Shown: piece by piece, positions 1-8,191 of the stretch
How positions within the stretch are numbered: the stretch's first letter is position 1
Layout: every line of letters starts with the position of its first letter
Assembly: GCA_964625065.1 (NCBI GenBank)
Contig: CAZUZL010000001.1
Span: 40,132-104,131, forward strand
Reading direction: 5' to 3'
DNA from: an uncultured Candidatus Saccharibacteria bacterium
GTDB lineage: Bacteria; Patescibacteriota; Minisyncoccia; Phycocordibacterales; UBA9973
DNA: 64,000 nucleotides
Notes under the pieces: model-generated
What the model was told of the DNA's origin: nothing
Databases searched by the model: none
The model's input: only the letters and a program-made list of their open reading frames with translations
Made by a program: the position numbers and the translations under genes

Positions 1-18
1 CTGGTCTTCGCATATAGA

Positions 19-441
19 TTATTTAGTAGTTACTTTAGGACGTTTTGCACCGTATCTTGAACGTGACTTACCACGCTTTTCAGGAGCAGTTGCATCGAGA
101 CGACCACGAACGATGGTGTAACGTACACCGATCAAGTCCTTCACACGACCGCCGCGTATAACGACAACCGAGTGTTCTTGTAATTTGTGTCCAATACCTG
201 GAATGTAGGCTGTAACTTCTTGGCCATTAGTTAGGCGGACACGAGCAATTTTACGAACTGCAGAGTTAGGCTTTTTAGGAGTTGTAGTAGTAACCTTTGT
301 ACATACGCCACGTTTAAATGGTGACGGGTAGAACACAGGGCGGTTTTTAAGCGCATTAAAACCACGTGCTAATGCAACGGTTTTCTTTCTTTTAACCACA
401 TTTTTGCGGTTCTTTTTGATTAATTGATTTATTGTTGGCAT
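19..441 (-). CDS. rpsL: 30S ribosomal protein S12
   Basis: 140 aa translation [10 protein letters not shown]...[11 protein letters not shown] is a near-canonical S12 sequence. Confidence 0.95.
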
Positions 442-683
442 ATTTATATAGTAATTTTATAGCATATAGTTTGTCCAGCTATGGACACCCTACCTTCTGT
501 GCTCCTCTGCAACTCTTACAAAAGAGTAAAACACCGACTTATCCTAATACAAATTTGGTTTTTATGCAAGCCCCTACACCTATGTTACCATTTTGTTTTA
601 GTGTAAAATAACGACTGTCACAAAAAGAAAATATCGCGATTCGGCTGAATTTTATTACACCACACTCAAAACACTATGTTCGA

Positions 684-2846
684 TTATGGCAATATAGGTG
701 TGGGGGCAAGGGGTGCGCCTGGAACTGGGGTTTCGTATGTTTGTTCTATTATAAACTTCTCGTCCATGTAGCCTTTTTTAACAACCACAGTATGGTTTAC
801 CATTACAGGGCTGTACGAACCGTCTAGGTTCTTCTTCTCAATATTTACTTCATAAACACCGTTTGGTATTAGGCAGTAGAACTGACCGTTTTTATTAGTT
901 ATCTTTTTTATAAAGTCTTTACCGTTACGTAAAATGTGCACAATAGCATATGGGTATGGGTTACCTTTTGGTCCAACAACATAACTACGTGGTTTTGGTC
1001 GTAATGCAGTGTATTTTAGAATCAGCATTAATGTATAAAGCGCAACAACTATCATGTTGTAGTTTGAAGCTTTTGCATACCACGACAGTATTGAAACTAT
1101 ATAACCGATGAAGAAAAATACATTTGCAAAACGAACCCAGAAAACTTCGTGTGTTTTATGGTATGTCATTAATGTTTGTTGGCGTTTAGCGTATTCGTTC
1201 CAGTCAAAATGTTCTGGGTCCATTGGTATATTTGATATTACAAGACTGTTGCCGTCAGCACCTACTGTAAAAGGCATGCCATAGTACAGGTCTTTGTATA
1301 TTTCGTCTTCGTATTTACCATCTAGTAGTTTTGATGGGAAAATATAATTCGTCTTATGTGCAACAACAGTATATGTACCAGGTGGTAATAAAAATCCGAA
1401 ACGTCCATCTAAATCTGTTATAGATGTTTCTATTTCTTTACCTGTTATATCAAAAACTGAAACATACACTGGGTCTAGTGGTTGTTTAGTAACACTGTCG
1501 TACACAGTACCCCATGGGCGGTTTTTCTTTTTCAAACCTATCAGTACCAAGAACAGACTCCATAATCTAAACGGTATCAACAATAATTCACCCAACGAAA
1601 GTGGGTTTACAAACAATAGACTCATTATAGAAACAGACGAACCAGCAACAACACCAACTACCCCAGCAGTTTTAACAGCAGGTGTTATACCTGGTCTTTC
1701 AAATATTACTTTTACGGCTTTTTTTGTTGTTTCTATAACTTTGTTTGAATTAGATATACTTTTTCCAACATTGTCTGTTACATAACACCATATTGAACTA
1801 CAAACAGGTTCTACAGGGTGTCCGCCACCTCCGCCTGAGCCACCACCACCTCCGGTGCCTCCACCTCCGCCTGTTCCGCCGCCTCCAGAACCGCCTGTTC
1901 CTCCTCCGCCAGTGCCACCGCCTCCGGTACCACCGCCACCGGTTCCTCCACCACCATTACCTCCGCCCCCGCCTGAGCCACCACCTCCGGTACCGCCGCC
2001 TCCAGAACCGCCTGTTCCTCCGCCACCAGTGCCACCTCCTCCGGTGCCACCGCCGCCATTACCTCCTCCGCCGCCGTTTCCGCCGCCACCTCCACCTGAA
2101 CCGCCGCCACCTCCATGTCCACCACTTCCACAAAAACCAACTTCTACACTACCACTACTGTTATAAGTGGCTGAATTAGCTGCATTACAATCTGTATGGC
2201 AGTCTCTGTCTGTACTGTCTGTAAAAGTATCAGAATCATTATCTAAACCATCAGCACAAATTGGTCTAGAAACTTTTGGCACCCAGTCTGTTTTTACACA
2301 GGCGTCTGCATCAGCACAGTCAAACTTTATATAACCGTAGTTTTCGCTCCATGCATAACCTATAAATTCACCCGCACTGTTTATACGCACAGAAAAATCT
2401 GCATCGGCACAGCTGCCTGTCGGGTATGCCGAAGTTACATTAGAACAATTAAAAGACACCCAACCGGTGTTTTCACCCCAAGCAAAACCTGACAGTACAC
2501 CGTAACTACGGTCAGAACTTACATCTAAATTTACGTAGTAGTTAGAATCAGCACAGCCACTAGCTAGTGCGCCCACTGCGGCACAGTTTAGGCGTATCCA
2601 ACCGGTAGATTCACCGAACATCATTCCAGACAAACCGTTGTCTGTAACATGCACATTGTATGTGTCTATTCCTGGTTCTGTATAGTAGCCTGCATTTATA
2701 CGTGTACTAGTCGAAGTTTCTTTCGCTTTCCAGTATGTGGCGTCTATGGTGCCACTGTCAAAAGACGCAAACGCAACACCCGTGTTGATGCAGAAAAATA
2801 TAGAAATAATTAAAAATAATTTCTTAGAAAAAATACGGACGTCCAT
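684..2846 (-). CDS. Large secreted/membrane surface protein: N-terminal GW..F.C repeats, ~100-aa poly-Gly(S/N/T) linker, TM segments, two carboxypeptidase-regulatory-like beta-sandwich motifs
   Basis: 720 aa ORF with signal-peptide-like N-terminus; repeated GWIRLNCA/GWVSFNCS/GYIKFDCADADA units; GGGGSGGGGGGNGGGGG tract encoded by a tandem ~120-bp GC-rich repeat (1860-2100); hydrophobic helices; DITGKEIETSITDLDGRFGFLLPPGTYTV motif. Confidence 0.65.
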   Translation of the reverse strand: MDVRIFSKKLFLIISIFFCINTGVAFASFDSGTIDATYWKAKETSTSTRINAGYYTEPGIDTYNVHVTDNGLSGMMFGESTGWIRLNCAAVGALASGCADSNYYVNLDVSSDRSYGVLSGFAWGENTGWVSFNCSNVTSAYPTGSCADADFSVRINSAGEFIGYAWSENYGYIKFDCADADACVKTDWVPKVSRPICADGLDNDSDTFTDSTDRDCHTDCNAANSATYNSSGSVEVGFCGSGGHGGGGGSGGGGGGNGGGGGNGGGGTGGGGTGGGGTGGSGGGGTGGGGSGGGGGNGGGGTGGGGTGGGGTGGGGTGGSGGGGTGGGGGTGGGGGSGGGGGHPVEPVCSSIWCYVTDNVGKSISNSNKVIETTKKAVKVIFERPGITPAVKTAGVVGVVAGSSVSIMSLLFVNPLSLGELLLIPFRLWSLFLVLIGLKKKNRPWGTVYDSVTKQPLDPVYVSVFDITGKEIETSITDLDGRFGFLLPPGTYTVVAHKTNYIFPSKLLDGKYEDEIYKDLYYGMPFTVGADGNSLVISNIPMDPEHFDWNEYAKRQQTLMTYHKTHEVFWVRFANVFFFIGYIVSILSWYAKASNYNMIVVALYTLMLILKYTALRPKPRSYVVGPKGNPYPYAIVHILRNGKDFIKKITNKNGQFYCLIPNGVYEVNIEKKNLDGSYSPVMVNHTVVVKKGYMDEKFIIEQTYETPVPGAPLAPTPILP

Positions 2847-2854
2847 GTTATGTA

Positions 2855-3487
2855 TTATATACCACTACCGACAATAATGTGAGTCAAGAAATGCAATATA
2901 GGTGGAAAAACTTTTGGTGCTAGAAATATTATAAACAAAACTAACAAAATAAAACCCCATTTATTTAGAAAACTTTCTATGTATGCGTATTTTGCTGGCA
3001 AAAAAGCAAACAAAACTTTTGAACCGTCTAGTGGTGGTAACGGAATAAGGTTAAACACAACCAACACAATGTTTAAAATAACTATTTTAGAAGTTACTGC
3101 TAATACACCTGCAGTTAGTGTGCCTGTTGTTGCAAGCAAGCGAATAAGTAAACCAAAAACAACAGCCAGCAGTAAGTTAGAAATAACACCCGCTAATGCC
3201 ACCCATATAGTGCCACGTTTAATATTATAAAAGTTGTTTGGGTTTACTGGTACTGGTTTTGCCCAGGCTATCATAAAACCGGTACCTGAAAGTAGTAAAA
3301 TTAATGGCAAAAGAAAAGACCCGAAAAGTTCCAAATGTGGTAATGGGTTAATGGTTAAACGGCCAGCGTAGCGTGCGGTAGGGTCGCCAAAATATTCGGC
3401 CACATAACCATGGGCAAGTTCATGAATTACCACTGAAGCCAGTAATATAATAACGTATGTAATAATACCAATTGTGTCGCCTTGCAT
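2855..3487 (-). CDS. Site-2 protease family (peptidase M50) zinc metalloprotease
   Basis: HELAHGYVAEYFGDP HExxH motif in a polytopic membrane protein of ~210 aa. Confidence 0.8.
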   Translation of the reverse strand: MQGDTIGIITYVIILLASVVIHELAHGYVAEYFGDPTARYAGRLTINPLPHLELFGSFLLPLILLLSGTGFMIAWAKPVPVNPNNFYNIKRGTIWVALAGVISNLLLAVVFGLLIRLLATTGTLTAGVLAVTSKIVILNIVLVVFNLIPLPPLDGSKVLFAFLPAKYAYIESFLNKWGFILLVLFIIFLAPKVFPPILHFLTHIIVGSGI

Positions 3488-3520
3488 AATTTATATACTT
3501 ATGATAGCATAATACCCGTT

Positions 3521-3766
3521 ATGGCAAAAGTATGTGAAATCACAGGAAAAGGCTCTATCGTCGGTGGCGGTTATTCTACGAAGGTTCGTGCAACCAAGTT
3601 TAACCCTGTTGGCAACAGCCGTAAATACCCCAACCTTCAAAAGAAGCGTATTTTTGTTGCGGAACTAAACAAAACTTTCGTGCTTACAATATCTACTAAC
3701 GCAATACGCACTATCGCTAAAAACGGCGCATTCGCAACACTTAAAAAAGCTGGAATCATAAAATAG
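3521..3766 (+). CDS. rpmB: 50S ribosomal protein L28
   Basis: MAKVCEITGKGSIVGGGYSTKVRATKFNPVGN... matches L28; the ORF-track start at 3482 is a TTG that overlaps the upstream gene, so the ATG at 3521 is preferred. Confidence 0.85.
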   Translation: MAKVCEITGKGSIVGGGYSTKVRATKFNPVGNSRKYPNLQKKRIFVAELNKTFVLTISTNAIRTIAKNGAFATLKKAGIIK

Positions 3767-3794: not shown

Positions 3795-3830
3795 AAAAAA
3801 GCCGTTCGAAATTCGAACGGCTTTTTTATT
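3795..3830. terminator. Bidirectional intrinsic terminator
   Basis: aaaaaa-GCCGTTCGAA-att-TCGAACGGC-ttttttatt between convergent genes. Confidence 0.65.
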
Positions 3831-4692
3831 TACATATAACAGTATTACCGTCTGAAGTACAGTTTATCGTACCCATTTTACTGGTTTCTAGATATGGAAT
3901 ATGCAGATTATTTATACGGTCCAGCACTTCTTTATGTGGGTGGCCGTATTGGTTTTTCAGACCGGCAGAAATAATAGCCAGCTTTGGGTGCACTGCCATA
4001 AGATATTCAACAGACGACGATGTGCGCGACCCATGGTGGCCAAGCTTTAAAACATCTACCGGTAACATACTTGGGTTGTGTTGTACTAAATACAGTTCCT
4101 TACCTATAGGCGAGTCCCCTGTAAACATAAACGACGTGTTGCCGTAGTCTAGTCGGGCAACAATTGAAGCTTCGTTAGTTTCCCACCCCGACACATCTGT
4201 ATCTGGGTACAGTATAGTTAAGTAAATATTATTTTTCTGGTCCAACATTATTTTCTGCCCAGCACGTGCATATATGTGCGGTATGTTTTTCTGTAATATT
4301 ATTTGTTGTAAATTTTGGTATACATCTGTGTTTACAGTTACACCTGGTTCTAACACACTTCCGACTTTATATTTTTCTAATACACTAACCAAACCTGCTA
4401 CATGGTCTGCATCTGGGTGCGTAGCAATAACCACATCTATACTGCGCTGGAAAAAAGGTAACTCTGCACCTAGGCGCGACAAAACTGTATTGTCACGCCC
4501 ACCGTCTATTAACATAGTTGTACCACTTGGTGTTTGTATTAGCATACTGTCGCCCTGGCCTACATCTAAAAAAGAAACTTTTAATTTATTTTGTGCTGGT
4601 TGTAAAAGCAAAACAAAAACCAACACCCCACCCAATACCAACAAACCCCCAACATATGCCCATAGTTTTTTGTGGTTCGGTTTTTGTTCCAT
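3826..4692 (-). CDS. Membrane-anchored metallo-beta-lactamase-fold hydrolase of the ComEC C-terminal type
   Basis: N-terminal TM helix, FLDVGQGDSMLI, ATHPDADHVAGL, GHHGS motifs typical of the ComEC/Rec2 lactamase-like domain. Confidence 0.75.
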   Translation of the reverse strand: MEQKPNHKKLWAYVGGLLVLGGVLVFVLLLQPAQNKLKVSFLDVGQGDSMLIQTPSGTTMLIDGGRDNTVLSRLGAELPFFQRSIDVVIATHPDADHVAGLVSVLEKYKVGSVLEPGVTVNTDVYQNLQQIILQKNIPHIYARAGQKIMLDQKNNIYLTILYPDTDVSGWETNEASIVARLDYGNTSFMFTGDSPIGKELYLVQHNPSMLPVDVLKLGHHGSRTSSSVEYLMAVHPKLAIISAGLKNQYGHPHKEVLDRINNLHIPYLETSKMGTINCTSDGNTVICK

Positions 4693-5834: not shown

Positions 5835-6515
5835 ATGACAAAAAAAGTAACCAGATCAGTAACAAGCCCAGAGGATTTTATTAGCATCCCCTCTGAAGAA
5901 GGCGAACGACTTATTCGTCGTATGTGGCTAGCAAGTGTATCATCTGAAGAAAAACCTTATTTGTCGCCAGTTTCGACATTTATGGCAAGATTCCGCCAGC
6001 AGATATTTATACAAAAAGACAATGGCAGCCCTCTGAAAATATACTTTTTTCTTGAAAAAGAGTTACTCCACAATAAAAAACTATTTAAAGACATTCAGAC
6101 TCTTGGCATGCTACCTAGTAATGCCTACTGCCATGCCACGATTAACGCAGGGCATGTAACTCAAATTCGCGCAAAGGGAATTCTAAGTGAAATGGACAAA
6201 GAAGAAAAAGATTTCTTTACTAAAAAAATAAAGGAAAGAATGAATGGAGTCAAAAATGAAGACCAGCCGGTTCTATTATTCTCTTTTTATGGTCCACTAC
6301 TAAAATTTAATATCAATAATTGTATTGAGAACCCTAAAGCTAAGTTTTATTGTTTCGAACCAACCCAGTATGAATACTGTAAATACTGGCTATGTAGAGT
6401 GGGTCAGATTAAACGTGATAATCCAGGCAAATCAATACAAAGACTTATTGCTGAAGGACAATACAAATCAAAGAAAAATGGAAGGTTAGTTACGCAAGAA
6501 TTTCTAATTTTGTAA
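5835..6515 (+). CDS. Hypothetical protein
   Basis: 226 aa ORF with its own terminator downstream; no recognisable motif. Confidence 0.45.
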   Translation: MTKKVTRSVTSPEDFISIPSEEGERLIRRMWLASVSSEEKPYLSPVSTFMARFRQQIFIQKDNGSPLKIYFFLEKELLHNKKLFKDIQTLGMLPSNAYCHATINAGHVTQIRAKGILSEMDKEEKDFFTKKIKERMNGVKNEDQPVLLFSFYGPLLKFNINNCIENPKAKFYCFEPTQYEYCKYWLCRVGQIKRDNPGKSIQRLIAEGQYKSKKNGRLVTQEFLIL

Positions 6516-6529
6516 AAGTTAAATAATTT

Positions 6530-6560
6530 AAAAAGTCAGGTATAGCCTGACTTTTTTTTA
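6530..6560. terminator. Bidirectional intrinsic terminator
   Basis: aaaaa-GTCAGGTATAGCCTGAC-tttttttta between convergent genes. Confidence 0.65.
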
Positions 6561-8003
6561 TTTTATAATCCCTATAACCCCATTCCCAAACAACATCACC
6601 GCCATTACCCCATACATACCCAACATTGCCCACAGTGGCAATGGGTAGTTTAGTACACCAAAAGGAACAGAGGCGAATAACATAATAACCCACAACACAA
6701 ACGTTAATAATATAGAAAGTGGAAATGCAAATAAAATAGATAAACTCGGTATAAAAAAACACAACACCAATAAAAATGTTAACCCCATAACCAGTGGCAT
6801 AAGTGGCAGTATTAATACATTGGCCGGTATTGAAACCAAAGACATAGCCCCCATAGTAAATAGTATCAGTGGCAGTACAGCAATATTTGTACCCACTGTT
6901 GTGGCAACCACGTCGCGTATACCAAACTTATCTGTTACCCATAAAAACTTGTGTAGTATTTTGGGTGTTATATATATCAGCCCTATAGTAGCTAAAACTG
7001 AAAGTTGAAATGAAACGTCGTACAGTATTGTAAATGGGTTCATTATACCCATTGCAATAATTGTTAATACCAACACCCTGCCTATATATGTTTTTCTACC
7101 GACAAGTTTTGCCAATATAACAATACCACCCATTATGCCCGCACGTATGGCAGTGGTAGAAGCACCGGTTAATATTACAAATAAAACTATACCAAATATT
7201 GAAACTATCCATGCTACTGTAACAGAAAATATTGCACCCAATGTTGCCAACATGGCTTCGACAACAATGGTAATGTTGTAGCCCGACAGGGCAATAATGT
7301 GTATAGTTCCGGAACGTACAAACTGGTCGCGCAAACCTGTTGTTAACCAGTCGCGCGAACCAACTAATATGCCACGAGCTAAGCCAGACTGCGGTTCGTG
7401 CAAATTGTTGTTTATTTGGTTTTCTATTTTATTCTTTAGTACTGCTAAACGTGCAGTAACATTCCACCTACCTGCTGGTGTGGTAGACAACACTTTTGGT
7501 TTGTCTAATGTTACATATACAAAGTCTTTTTTAAGATACGAAACATAGTCAAATACAGTGTCGTTAGAACCAGTAAAGTTTTCTGGGTATTGAAGTACGC
7601 CAGAAATTTGTACATGTTCACCCACCAACAAATTCCCGCTGTTTATTTTTACTAATACTCGAAATCTTTCACCGACGGGTTGTACTAAAACAGTTTGTAT
7701 ATTATTTTTACCTTCAGCAGTTACTACCCTGCCTGATAATGTTACATTTTTATTTATTGCATCCGTGTACAGAACAGGTATTTTTGGCATGCGCATATAC
7801 GAAACACCATAGCCAAGTAAAATAGACACCACTAAAACGAACGTTAAACCAAAAACTTTTTTAGAAAACTTACCTAAAAACAAAATACAAACCAGACAAA
7901 TAAAAACACCGGCAACTAGGCCGTATGTGTTCTGTTGTGCTGTAAATAAAATAATACCAACTACTGCGCCGAAACTTGTTCCATAAAACAAATTGTCATC
8001 CAT
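6558..8003 (-). CDS. comEC: DNA internalization competence protein ComEC/Rec2 (DUF4131 + competence channel domain, no lactamase domain)
   Basis: Polytopic membrane protein with ComEC competence-domain motifs (…TAIRAGIMGGIVILAKL…). The ORF-track GTG start at 8027 (MALPISNGM) lies inside a repeat; the ATG at 8001-8003 (MDDNLFYG) is preferred. Confidence 0.8.
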   Translation of the reverse strand: MDDNLFYGTSFGAVVGIILFTAQQNTYGLVAGVFICLVCILFLGKFSKKVFGLTFVLVVSILLGYGVSYMRMPKIPVLYTDAINKNVTLSGRVVTAEGKNNIQTVLVQPVGERFRVLVKINSGNLLVGEHVQISGVLQYPENFTGSNDTVFDYVSYLKKDFVYVTLDKPKVLSTTPAGRWNVTARLAVLKNKIENQINNNLHEPQSGLARGILVGSRDWLTTGLRDQFVRSGTIHIIALSGYNITIVVEAMLATLGAIFSVTVAWIVSIFGIVLFVILTGASTTAIRAGIMGGIVILAKLVGRKTYIGRVLVLTIIAMGIMNPFTILYDVSFQLSVLATIGLIYITPKILHKFLWVTDKFGIRDVVATTVGTNIAVLPLILFTMGAMSLVSIPANVLILPLMPLVMGLTFLLVLCFFIPSLSILFAFPLSILLTFVLWVIMLFASVPFGVLNYPLPLWAMLGMYGVMAVMLFGNGVIGIIK

Positions 8004-8191
8004 CCCGTTAGAGATAGGAAGTGCCACATTACAATATATGGAACTTCCTATAATTAGATAATTTATAATATTTCGACCATACTACTAGACCCTACAGGCA
8101 CTTCCGTAATATATTTGATTATATTTACATATTAACATAATTTATTTCTTTATTATATTAAGACAAAATAACATCTGTTATCTCAACGGGA
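8001..8191. mobile_element. 191-bp TIR-bounded repeat element (copy A); its terminal CAT is the comEC start codon
   Basis: Left arm catcccgttagagataggaagtgccac (8001-8027), inner partner ggcacttccgta (8097-8108), shared acatattaacata core, right arm atctcaacggga (8180-8191). Confidence 0.6.

Follow-up and report, generated by a model that had tools for sequence, protein, structure and literature searches.

The poly-Gly gene and its parts

The window considered here is a 64,000-nt stretch of DNA from an uncultured Candidatus Saccharibacteria bacterium (contig CAZUZL010000001.1, positions 40,132 to 104,131), and all positions and background figures below refer to it. It contains a gene whose 720-aa product carries a long run of glycines and which a first-pass annotation of the DNA had taken to encode a surface protein. 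The open reading frame (ORF) stands as it had been called, and the following parts were recognised in it.

684..2846, minus: whole gene, encoding a 720-aa precursor, a predicted membrane-anchored surface protein of a Patescibacteria family (ORF listing)
2763..2846, minus (aa 1-28): signal peptide of the Sec type, MDVRIFSKKLFLIISIFFCINTGVAFA followed by S, with a hydrophobic peak at aa 14-22 and an AlphaFold2 (AF2) helix at aa 3-20
2277..2762, minus (aa 29-190): ectodomain, a small beta-barrel with three GW hairpin repeats and paired cysteines
2190..2261, minus (aa 196-219): acidic double-disulfide (Ca-binding-like) repeat, CADGLDNDSDTFTDSTDRDC (NCBIfam NF033662, sub-threshold)
1821..2123, minus (aa 242-342): poly-Gly spacer, essentially (G4-5[T/S/N])n by composition, predicted to be disordered
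1842-1958 and 1959-2075, minus: diverged in-frame tandem duplication within the spacer, 2 x 117 nt (39 aa), 78% identical (repeat search)
1698..1793, minus (aa 352-383): long polar or amphipathic helix after the cysteine pair of CSSIWC (Cys 349, 354) (AF2)
1527..1682, minus (aa 389-413 and 418-440): transmembrane (TM) hairpin 1 with a conserved NP turn, followed by KKKNRPWG (hydropathy, AF2, conservation, charge counts)
1224..1514, minus (aa 445-541): beta-sandwich 1, CarboxypepD_reg or transthyretin-like (Pfam, AF2 strands, Foldseek, invariant columns)
1008..1154, minus (aa 565-591 and 595-613): TM hairpin 2, followed by RPKPR (hydropathy, conservation, AF2, charge counts)
747..989, minus (aa 620-700): beta-sandwich 2 (AF2 strands at aa 621-699, predicted local distance difference test (pLDDT) score 85-96; Foldseek)

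GC-rich low-complexity DNA is difficult to assemble where a genome is otherwise AT-rich, and the tract is missing from the closest relative (locus L001, described below). It might stem from faulty or chimeric assembly, or be a recently acquired insertion without function that disrupts the protein. However, the frame is open over 303 nt and re-enters conserved sequence in frame at both ends, and a low-complexity spacer lies at the same position in every family member, being Gly-rich (Gly/Thr) in P0070, P0084, P0042 and P0044 as well. Moreover, window positions 1-3218 recur at 100% identity in the Logan assembly of run SRR13208906, where contig L013 encodes the identical protein. Since the same sequence was recovered in this independent assembly, an assembly artefact of the Gly tract is unlikely, and we consider the whole explanation very improbable.

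The N-terminal domains, predicted to be exported

The signal peptide ends in a cleavage motif, AFA before S, read directly from its sequence. Regular-expression searches of the protein for a lipobox Cys and for LPxTG were negative, so that signals for lipoprotein or sortase anchoring were not found. The GW...F.C repeats noticed in the first reading number three (aa 74-88, 120-134 and 163-177) and follow the consensus G(Y/F)AW(S/G)EN.GW(I/V).F(N/D)C, in which the G and W positions are nearly invariant among homologues. Structure prediction, proposed at that stage as a check on these repeats, gave a small all-beta barrel (AF2 with 58 sequences, pLDDT 77.5). The barrel had no Pfam, NCBIfam or PDB sequence match, and sequence searches of solved structures returned nothing useful for either half of the protein; the GW barrel is thus an uncurated domain. 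The same domain also stands alone in small secreted proteins (among P0121-P0177), and some copies are joined to dockerin, PG_binding_1, ChW or Calx-beta. Besides Patescibacteria, at least one genome of Acidobacteria (P0150) encodes such stand-alone or fused proteins.

Between the barrel and the spacer, the single acidic repeat at aa 196-219 matches NF033662 with 27.5 bits (E 1.9e-6), below the cutoff of 41; the resemblance is real though sub-threshold. Motifs like CxDGxDNDxDG are visible in the relatives L001-L003, L007, P0005 and P0085.

The C-terminal module

After the spacer, the long helix leads into two TM hairpins, each followed by a beta-sandwich. Residues E420, P425, R427 and W429 of hairpin 1 are conserved, N597 and Y604 of hairpin 2 are invariant, and AF2 places a short helix (aa 549-559) between beta-sandwich 1 and hairpin 2. 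Beta-sandwich 1, with AF2 strands spanning aa 461-539, is the most conserved part, containing WGxVYDSVTKQPLDP, TDLDGRFGF, NIPMDP and FDWNE.

The annotation had recognised two carboxypeptidase-regulatory-like modules and had seen in them, together with the GW repeats, an adhesin or a cell-surface anchor. Both modules are present: the transthyretin-like seven-stranded beta-sandwich fold was obtained with AF2 and with Foldseek, the latter matching transthyretin and the C-terminal domains of carboxypeptidases D, M and N at probability 1.0 and matching only such sandwiches. At the sequence level, Pfam PF13715 (CarbopepD_reg_2) scored 25.2 bits, below its cutoff of 32.2, and PF13620 was not reported for the window protein; homologues pass PF13620, for example P0198 at 56.7 bits. 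Beta-sandwich 2 gave a weak phmmer match to the transthyretin-like domain of carboxypeptidase M (E 0.12). The sandwiches sit in the putative membrane-anchor module and not at the distal end, and an adhesin function is no more than a suggestion.

A large family with a common C-terminal module

A word-indexed search with the C-terminal part returned 437 homologues at E<=1e-3, the top ones with E values of 1e-99 to 1e-84, 40-50% identity, 80-95% coverage and dozens of invariant columns. This protein search returned neither the window protein itself nor close relatives, and a cluster look-up gave no match to the exact sequence. The full architecture is common to about 100 of the top 120 homologues. 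A profile of N-terminal homologues matched ~100/120 of the C-terminal homologues (E 1e-40 to 1e-76), and the motifs of this N-terminal GW domain, which ends in C..CVxTDW, are present at aa 74-188 of the window protein.

The module extends well beyond proteins of this architecture. An exhaustive search of 50%-identity cluster representatives found it in 3975 at E<=1e-3, 2817 at 1e-10 and 830 at 1e-30. In all 150 matches listed it lies at the extreme C-terminus, in proteins of 271-3040 aa, and a low-complexity stretch usually precedes it. The N-terminal parts that were scanned (among P0178-P0308) contain RCC1 propellers, FG-GAP, fn3, Ig and CHB_HEX_C domains. Its presence at the end of thousands of Patescibacteria proteins whose ectodomains are unrelated most likely marks the module as a generic anchor or sorting module for surface proteins.

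As a unit, these ~370 C-terminal residues (window 687-1817, minus strand) have no curated Pfam or NCBIfam model. In locus L007, a large repeat-rich N-terminal region stands ahead of the module. Within the window, no paralogue of either half of the protein was found. Literature searches on the family and module in Patescibacteria found nothing, and the broader literature on envelopes and low-complexity linkers was uninformative.

Conserved gene neighbourhood

The gene is flanked on its own strand by the following two genes.

2855..3487, minus: Peptidase_M50 (site-2-protease family), 210 aa (Pfam PF02163, 49.8 bits)
19..441, minus: rpsL (ribosomal protein S12), downstream (Pfam PF00164; conserved synteny)

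A gap of 8 nt separates the end of the M50 gene from the start codon of the poly-Gly gene, and the two are probably co-transcribed. A scan for promoters and terminators gave counts near the shuffled expectation and showed no clear terminator in the interval that separates the gene from rpsL. Farther upstream of M50, the window holds genes for L28, a metallo-beta-lactamase-fold protein, SOD and ComEC. At least 12 loci in which the C-terminal module is 43-52% identical have the same arrangement, L28 / M50, gene, S12, S7 (L001-L005, L009, L014/15, L017 and L020-L022; shifted in L018). An order conserved at such identities points to a vertically inherited, housekeeping-type position rather than an island or a contingency locus. 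The contingency status implied by the earlier suggestion of phase or antigenic variation therefore does not fit a gene that keeps its place among M50, rpsL and rpsG across these relatives.

The constant proximity of a site-2-protease homologue raises another explanation, namely that the protein is an M50 substrate whose NP-turn hairpin is cut by regulated intramembrane proteolysis, releasing either the ectodomain with its spacer or a cytoplasmic fragment. The 8-nt spacing on the same strand, the adjacency retained in at least 12 loci and a TM helix 1 rich in the helix-destabilising residues G, S, N and P are what such a substrate might show. Yet the adjacency may be no more than a conserved arrangement of genes near the str operon (L28, M50, S12, S7), in L014 and L018 M50 is separated from the family gene by other genes, and many paralogues of the module are encoded elsewhere without an M50 gene. 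We regard this role as quite improbable.

Some further features of these neighbourhoods were observed. A large protein with a Peptidase_S74 intramolecular-chaperone domain, resembling phage tail fibres, is encoded directly upstream of the family gene in L014 (2413-4974) and L016 (389-4465), lying in L014 between M50 and the family gene. DUF5907 is also present, along with a faint BppL_N match in L016. In the window, the ComEC-like channel (DUF4131 and Competence) and the metallo-beta-lactamase-fold protein are encoded by separate genes ~2 kb apart (3826-4692 and 6558-8027, both minus), with SOD and a 226-aa ORF without a Pfam match (5835-6515) between them; the same split arrangement is found in L017.

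Topology and the favoured reading

We read the gene as encoding a housekeeping-type cell-envelope protein of a Nomurabacteria/Paceibacteria (Patescibacteria) bacterium, composed of a displayed disulfide barrel, a disordered tether and a C-terminal membrane anchor, and put the probability of this reading at about 0.6. The surface or anchor assignment made in the first-pass annotation is borne out as a prediction by the Sec-type signal peptide, the four predicted TM helices and the asymmetry of the cysteines, 12 of which precede aa 355 while one follows it (1 in the C-terminal 366 aa). An exported N-terminus combined with an even number of TM helices, arranged in two hairpins, would leave both beta-sandwiches outside the membrane. 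Domains of the CarboxypepD_reg, Cna-B and SdrD-B types are overwhelmingly extracytoplasmic. An outside location of the sandwiches is accordingly the arrangement that we favour, if by no wide margin over an even chance.

Several observations weigh against it. Lys and Arg residues are abundant behind TM2 (mean 2.85), ahead of TM3 (5.2) and behind TM4 (2.5), and the hairpin loops have almost none; by the positive-inside rule, this distribution would place both beta-sandwiches in the cytoplasm, clashing with the placement derived from the exported N-terminus. The conserved E420, R427, N597 and Y604 within TM helices suggest a role of the membrane module beyond passive anchoring. The full-length AF2 model, in addition, reached a predicted template modelling (pTM) score of only 0.47.

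Some of these points would be accommodated if the protein were a receptor or transducer, in which the barrel binds a ligand, the four-TM bundle and cytoplasmic sandwiches transmit a signal or transport a substrate, and the Gly tract serves as a sensor leash. The strong conservation of the module, including charged residues in its TM helices, the positive charges after each hairpin and the solitary Cys of the C-terminal part all agree with such an arrangement. Against it stand the exported N-terminus with an even TM count, which places the sandwiches outside, the mostly extracytoplasmic occurrence of CarboxypepD_reg-type domains, and the fusion of the module to very diverse ectodomains, as expected of an anchor; the Pfam and NCBIfam scans showed no domain for signalling or transport. 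We consider a receptor or transducer unlikely and retain the anchored envelope protein as the favoured reading.

The poly-Gly tract and its repeats

The tract, reported at first as about 100 residues of poly-Gly with a GC content far above background, matches that description: it comprises 101 residues (82 G, 10 T, 5 S, 3 N and 1 H), and its GC content is 0.71 against 0.37 for the window. AF2 gave pLDDT <50 and no secondary structure for about aa 221-345, which are predicted to be disordered. The Gly codons of the tract (GGC 29, GGT 26, GGA 26, GGG 1) depart from the window background (GGT 53%, GGC 24%, GGA 13%, GGG 10%; chi-square p ~1e-7). With GGG used 1/82 times against 10% in the background, runs of G are avoided and the other codons are mixed, which lowers the repetitiveness of the DNA.

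The two units of ~120 bp that had been described as near-identical and prone to slippage correspond to a genuine but diverged duplication. Tandem Repeats Finder gave a period of 117 nt with 2.0 copies and 80% matches over 1861-2091. Identity between the copies is 78.6%, where codon-shuffled sequences reach 68.8% on average and 75.2% at most; the longest stretch repeated exactly is 29 nt (at offset 117), against 16.9 on average and 26 at most in the shuffles. Because none of the 300 shuffles reached either value, the 117-nt duplication is real. Other in-frame offsets reach 61-72% identity on account of the GGN periodicity. There being two copies only, at 78-80% identity, neither the near-identity nor the proneness to slippage ascribed to the units was upheld.

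Three nested shadow ORFs, including a poly-Pro reading on the plus strand, had also been reported, and all three are found, confined to the tract and its immediate flanks (ORF listing).

1793-2179, plus: shadow ORF
1811-2140, minus: shadow ORF
1855-2166, plus: shadow ORF, poly-Pro reading

Both these ORFs and the high GC content follow from the stop-free GGN/CCN periodicity of GGN codons. The frame whose flanks are conserved in relatives is the sense frame of the 720-aa ORF and not one of the shadow ORFs, which are by-products and not genes.

The repeats also bear on the proposal that the gene might be phase-variable. The only repeat periods that Tandem Repeats Finder detected in the tract are 15, 24, 39 and 117 nt, all multiples of three, and its longest homopolymer is 5 nt. 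The tract thus offers no substrate for frameshift phase variation, to which the avoidance of GGG may be added; no homopolymer or non-triplet repeat that could shift the frame or the promoter spacing was found, and an on/off switch is not supported.

Hypervariable spacers among relatives

Among 102 aligned family members, the spacer has a median of 101 aa (range 50-163); 26 spacers are Pro-rich, 15 Gly-rich and 22 Thr/Ser-rich. That of the window protein, measured as the 163 aa between W188 and aa 351, is the longest, and its Gly fraction (0.53) is second to that of P0070 (0.58). The closest genomic loci belong to metagenome-assembled genomes of Candidatus Nomurabacteria / Minisyncoccia / Paceibacterota, and the three close relatives L001-L003 came only from a scan of genome contigs; a scan of metagenome contigs for close strains returned only relatives at <=45% identity. 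In these four genomes, the stalk differs in length and is made from different sequences.

Window: 109 aa, poly-Gly
L001: 73 aa, SSS-P39-GGGGSTGGSGGTGGSGSGGGAGG (39 prolines and a short Gly/Ser stretch)
L002: 80 aa, Pro/Thr/Val-rich, then Gly/Ser
L003: 138 aa, ~8 copies of FCELNPxDPxCKVKT

The spacers are unrelated, in proteins whose N- and C-terminal flanks are 95%/95% (L001), 77%/88% (L002) and 71%/75% (L003) identical to those of the window protein. The DNA of the window and L001 is 92.9% identical over 1-1809 and 95.1% over 2130-3765, with no alignment across 1810-2129. Flanks that are 93-95% identical around a spacer that cannot be aligned indicate that the spacer is replaced while neighbouring codons barely change. 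Length and composition differ between close relatives, in line with the predicted length variation, but by replacement and not by copy number.

The linkers of two relatives deserve separate description. In L001 (~6718-6929), exactly 39 consecutive Pro codons occupy 117 nt, equal to the repeat period of the window tract; only CCA (21) and CCT (18) are used, which fits ordinary Pro usage. This Pro run abuts the Gly/Ser tract, so that runs of CCN and GGN form an imperfect inverted repeat. The L003 linker (~6290-6700) consists of ~8 tandem copies of a Cys-containing repeat of 15-16 aa and, judging from its sequence, would be stapled by disulfides rather than form a disordered stalk.

As GGN and CCN are reverse complements, conversion between Gly and Pro spacers by local inversion of the coding DNA is conceivable. 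The plus strand of the window tract reads PPPPVPPPPEPP, and hand-computed codon-usage likelihoods of the two possibilities (about -114 and -116.5 log units) do not discriminate; the low complexity of the tracts deprives alignment of power, and the idea is not supported.

Wholly different spacers between genomes with 93-95% identical flanks, together with a real tandem duplication and its 15-nt sub-period, could also be taken as signs of a contingency or 'Periscope-like' locus, in which the copy number of the Gly repeat changes often within populations and tunes the reach or exposure of the distal domain (size variation) or switches the gene (phase variation); a class of surface proteins whose stalks vary is already known (PMC8201768). 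Several results speak against this. There are just the two diverged copies, sharing no exact repeat above 29 nt; triplet periods and short homopolymers preclude frameshift switching; the near-equal use of GGC, GGT and GGA with avoidance of GGG reduces repetitiveness; two independent assemblies agree on tract length; relatives differ by replacement rather than copy number; and the gene context is that of a conserved housekeeping gene. We judge such a locus improbable, and take the tract to be a replaceable tether of an envelope protein.

Proposed organization

In the favoured reading, Sec export and signal-peptide cleavage would display a disulfide-stabilised barrel of three GW hairpins outside the cell, followed by an acidic, Ca-binding-like Cys loop. 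The ~370-aa C-terminal module, comprising the amphipathic helix, the two TM hairpins and the two beta-sandwiches, would hold the protein in the membrane, and the 101-residue Gly tether would allow the distal domain to extend across the cell wall and S-layer or above them. An envelope of this kind, a Gram-positive-like wall bearing an S-layer, is known in these organisms from cryo-EM work on ultra-small groundwater bacteria. Constraint on the spacer would then appear limited to length, flexibility, solubility and absence of stops. Such weak constraint would permit rapid turnover by in-frame duplication, slippage and replacement, and this turnover would explain the diverged 117-nt duplication, the 15-nt sub-period and the Gly, Pro, Pro-Thr and Cys-repeat differences among relatives.

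A bolder proposal, which we offer tentatively and with the odds against it, is that the ~370-aa unit is an undescribed, Patescibacteria-wide and self-contained anchoring or sorting module, maybe serviced by M50, whose spacer is barely constrained and flips its composition. Should it prove to be a dedicated anchor or sorting device, the module would provide a handle for predicting the surface proteome of Patescibacteria, whose way of life relies on cell-cell contact. Taken alone, the poly-Gly tract is a curiosity, and its context, a large uncharacterised envelope family of ultra-small and mostly uncultured Patescibacteria, is the more useful result; the spacers would amount to a natural experiment on the evolution of disordered tethers.

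Comparison with known systems

Phase-variable contingency loci are built on simple-sequence repeats in surface genes of Neisseria, Haemophilus and Mycoplasma. The present gene is like them in having a repeat inside the gene of a (predicted) surface protein, but it has no homopolymer or non-triplet repeat and lies in a conserved housekeeping context.

Gram-positive surface proteins have wall-spanning Pro/Gly-rich spacers, and TonB has a Pro-rich one. These spacers are likewise of low complexity, extended or flexible, and placed between an attached end and a distal functional domain; many members of the present family are Pro-rich too, while the window spacer is Gly and not Pro. The anchor differs, being a C-terminal integral module of four TM helices instead of LPXTG with sortase or an N-terminal TM helix. 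Sorting signals such as LPXTG/sortase and PEP-CTERM/exosortase would be functionally comparable to the proposed module, which would, however, be self-contained.

Engineered (Gly4Ser)n sequences are used as flexible linkers in the laboratory, and the tract, (G4-5 T/S/N) repeated ~18-20 times, follows the same design principle, but it is natural, ~5-7 times longer than is typical and contains Thr more than Ser. The eight-stranded soluble beta-barrels of hemophilin and of Slam-dependent surface lipoproteins (7re4, HpuA, NHBA and fHbp C-domains) are also among the closest known systems.

The Periscope proteins (SasG, Rib and Sgo_0707; Whelan et al. 2021, PMC8201768) have a repetitive stalk of variable length that sets the projection of an N-terminal domain. 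Like them, the window protein is (as predicted here) surface-attached and has a stalk below an N-terminal domain; the spacers of the four related genomes also differ in length, though through unlike sequences. A Periscope stalk, however, is a row of folded domains, and the DNA repeats behind it are highly identical and change in copy number (PMC8201768), whereas the window spacer is disordered (pLDDT <50), has two units at 78-80% identity and differs between strains by replacement of its composition; neither a tandem array of long, highly identical repeats nor repeats encoding folded rod domains were found in it. With repeats so few and diverged, encoding disorder, and with strain differences that are replacements, copy-number variation of the Periscope type is not supported.

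The family to which the protein belongs is uncharacterised and annotated as 'carboxypeptidase regulatory-like domain-containing protein' (for example Candidatus Nomurabacteria A2995_00135, P0030; Paceibacterota P0025); it has the whole architecture in common with the window protein, the barrel ending in CVxTDW, the C-terminal part being 40-50% identical and the M50 / rpsL neighbourhood being the same. The window protein differs in its almost pure Gly spacer, the longest of the 102, and its clade has the extra acidic double-disulfide loop between barrel and spacer. The gene thus adds to an existing Patescibacteria family a member whose Gly spacer is extreme.

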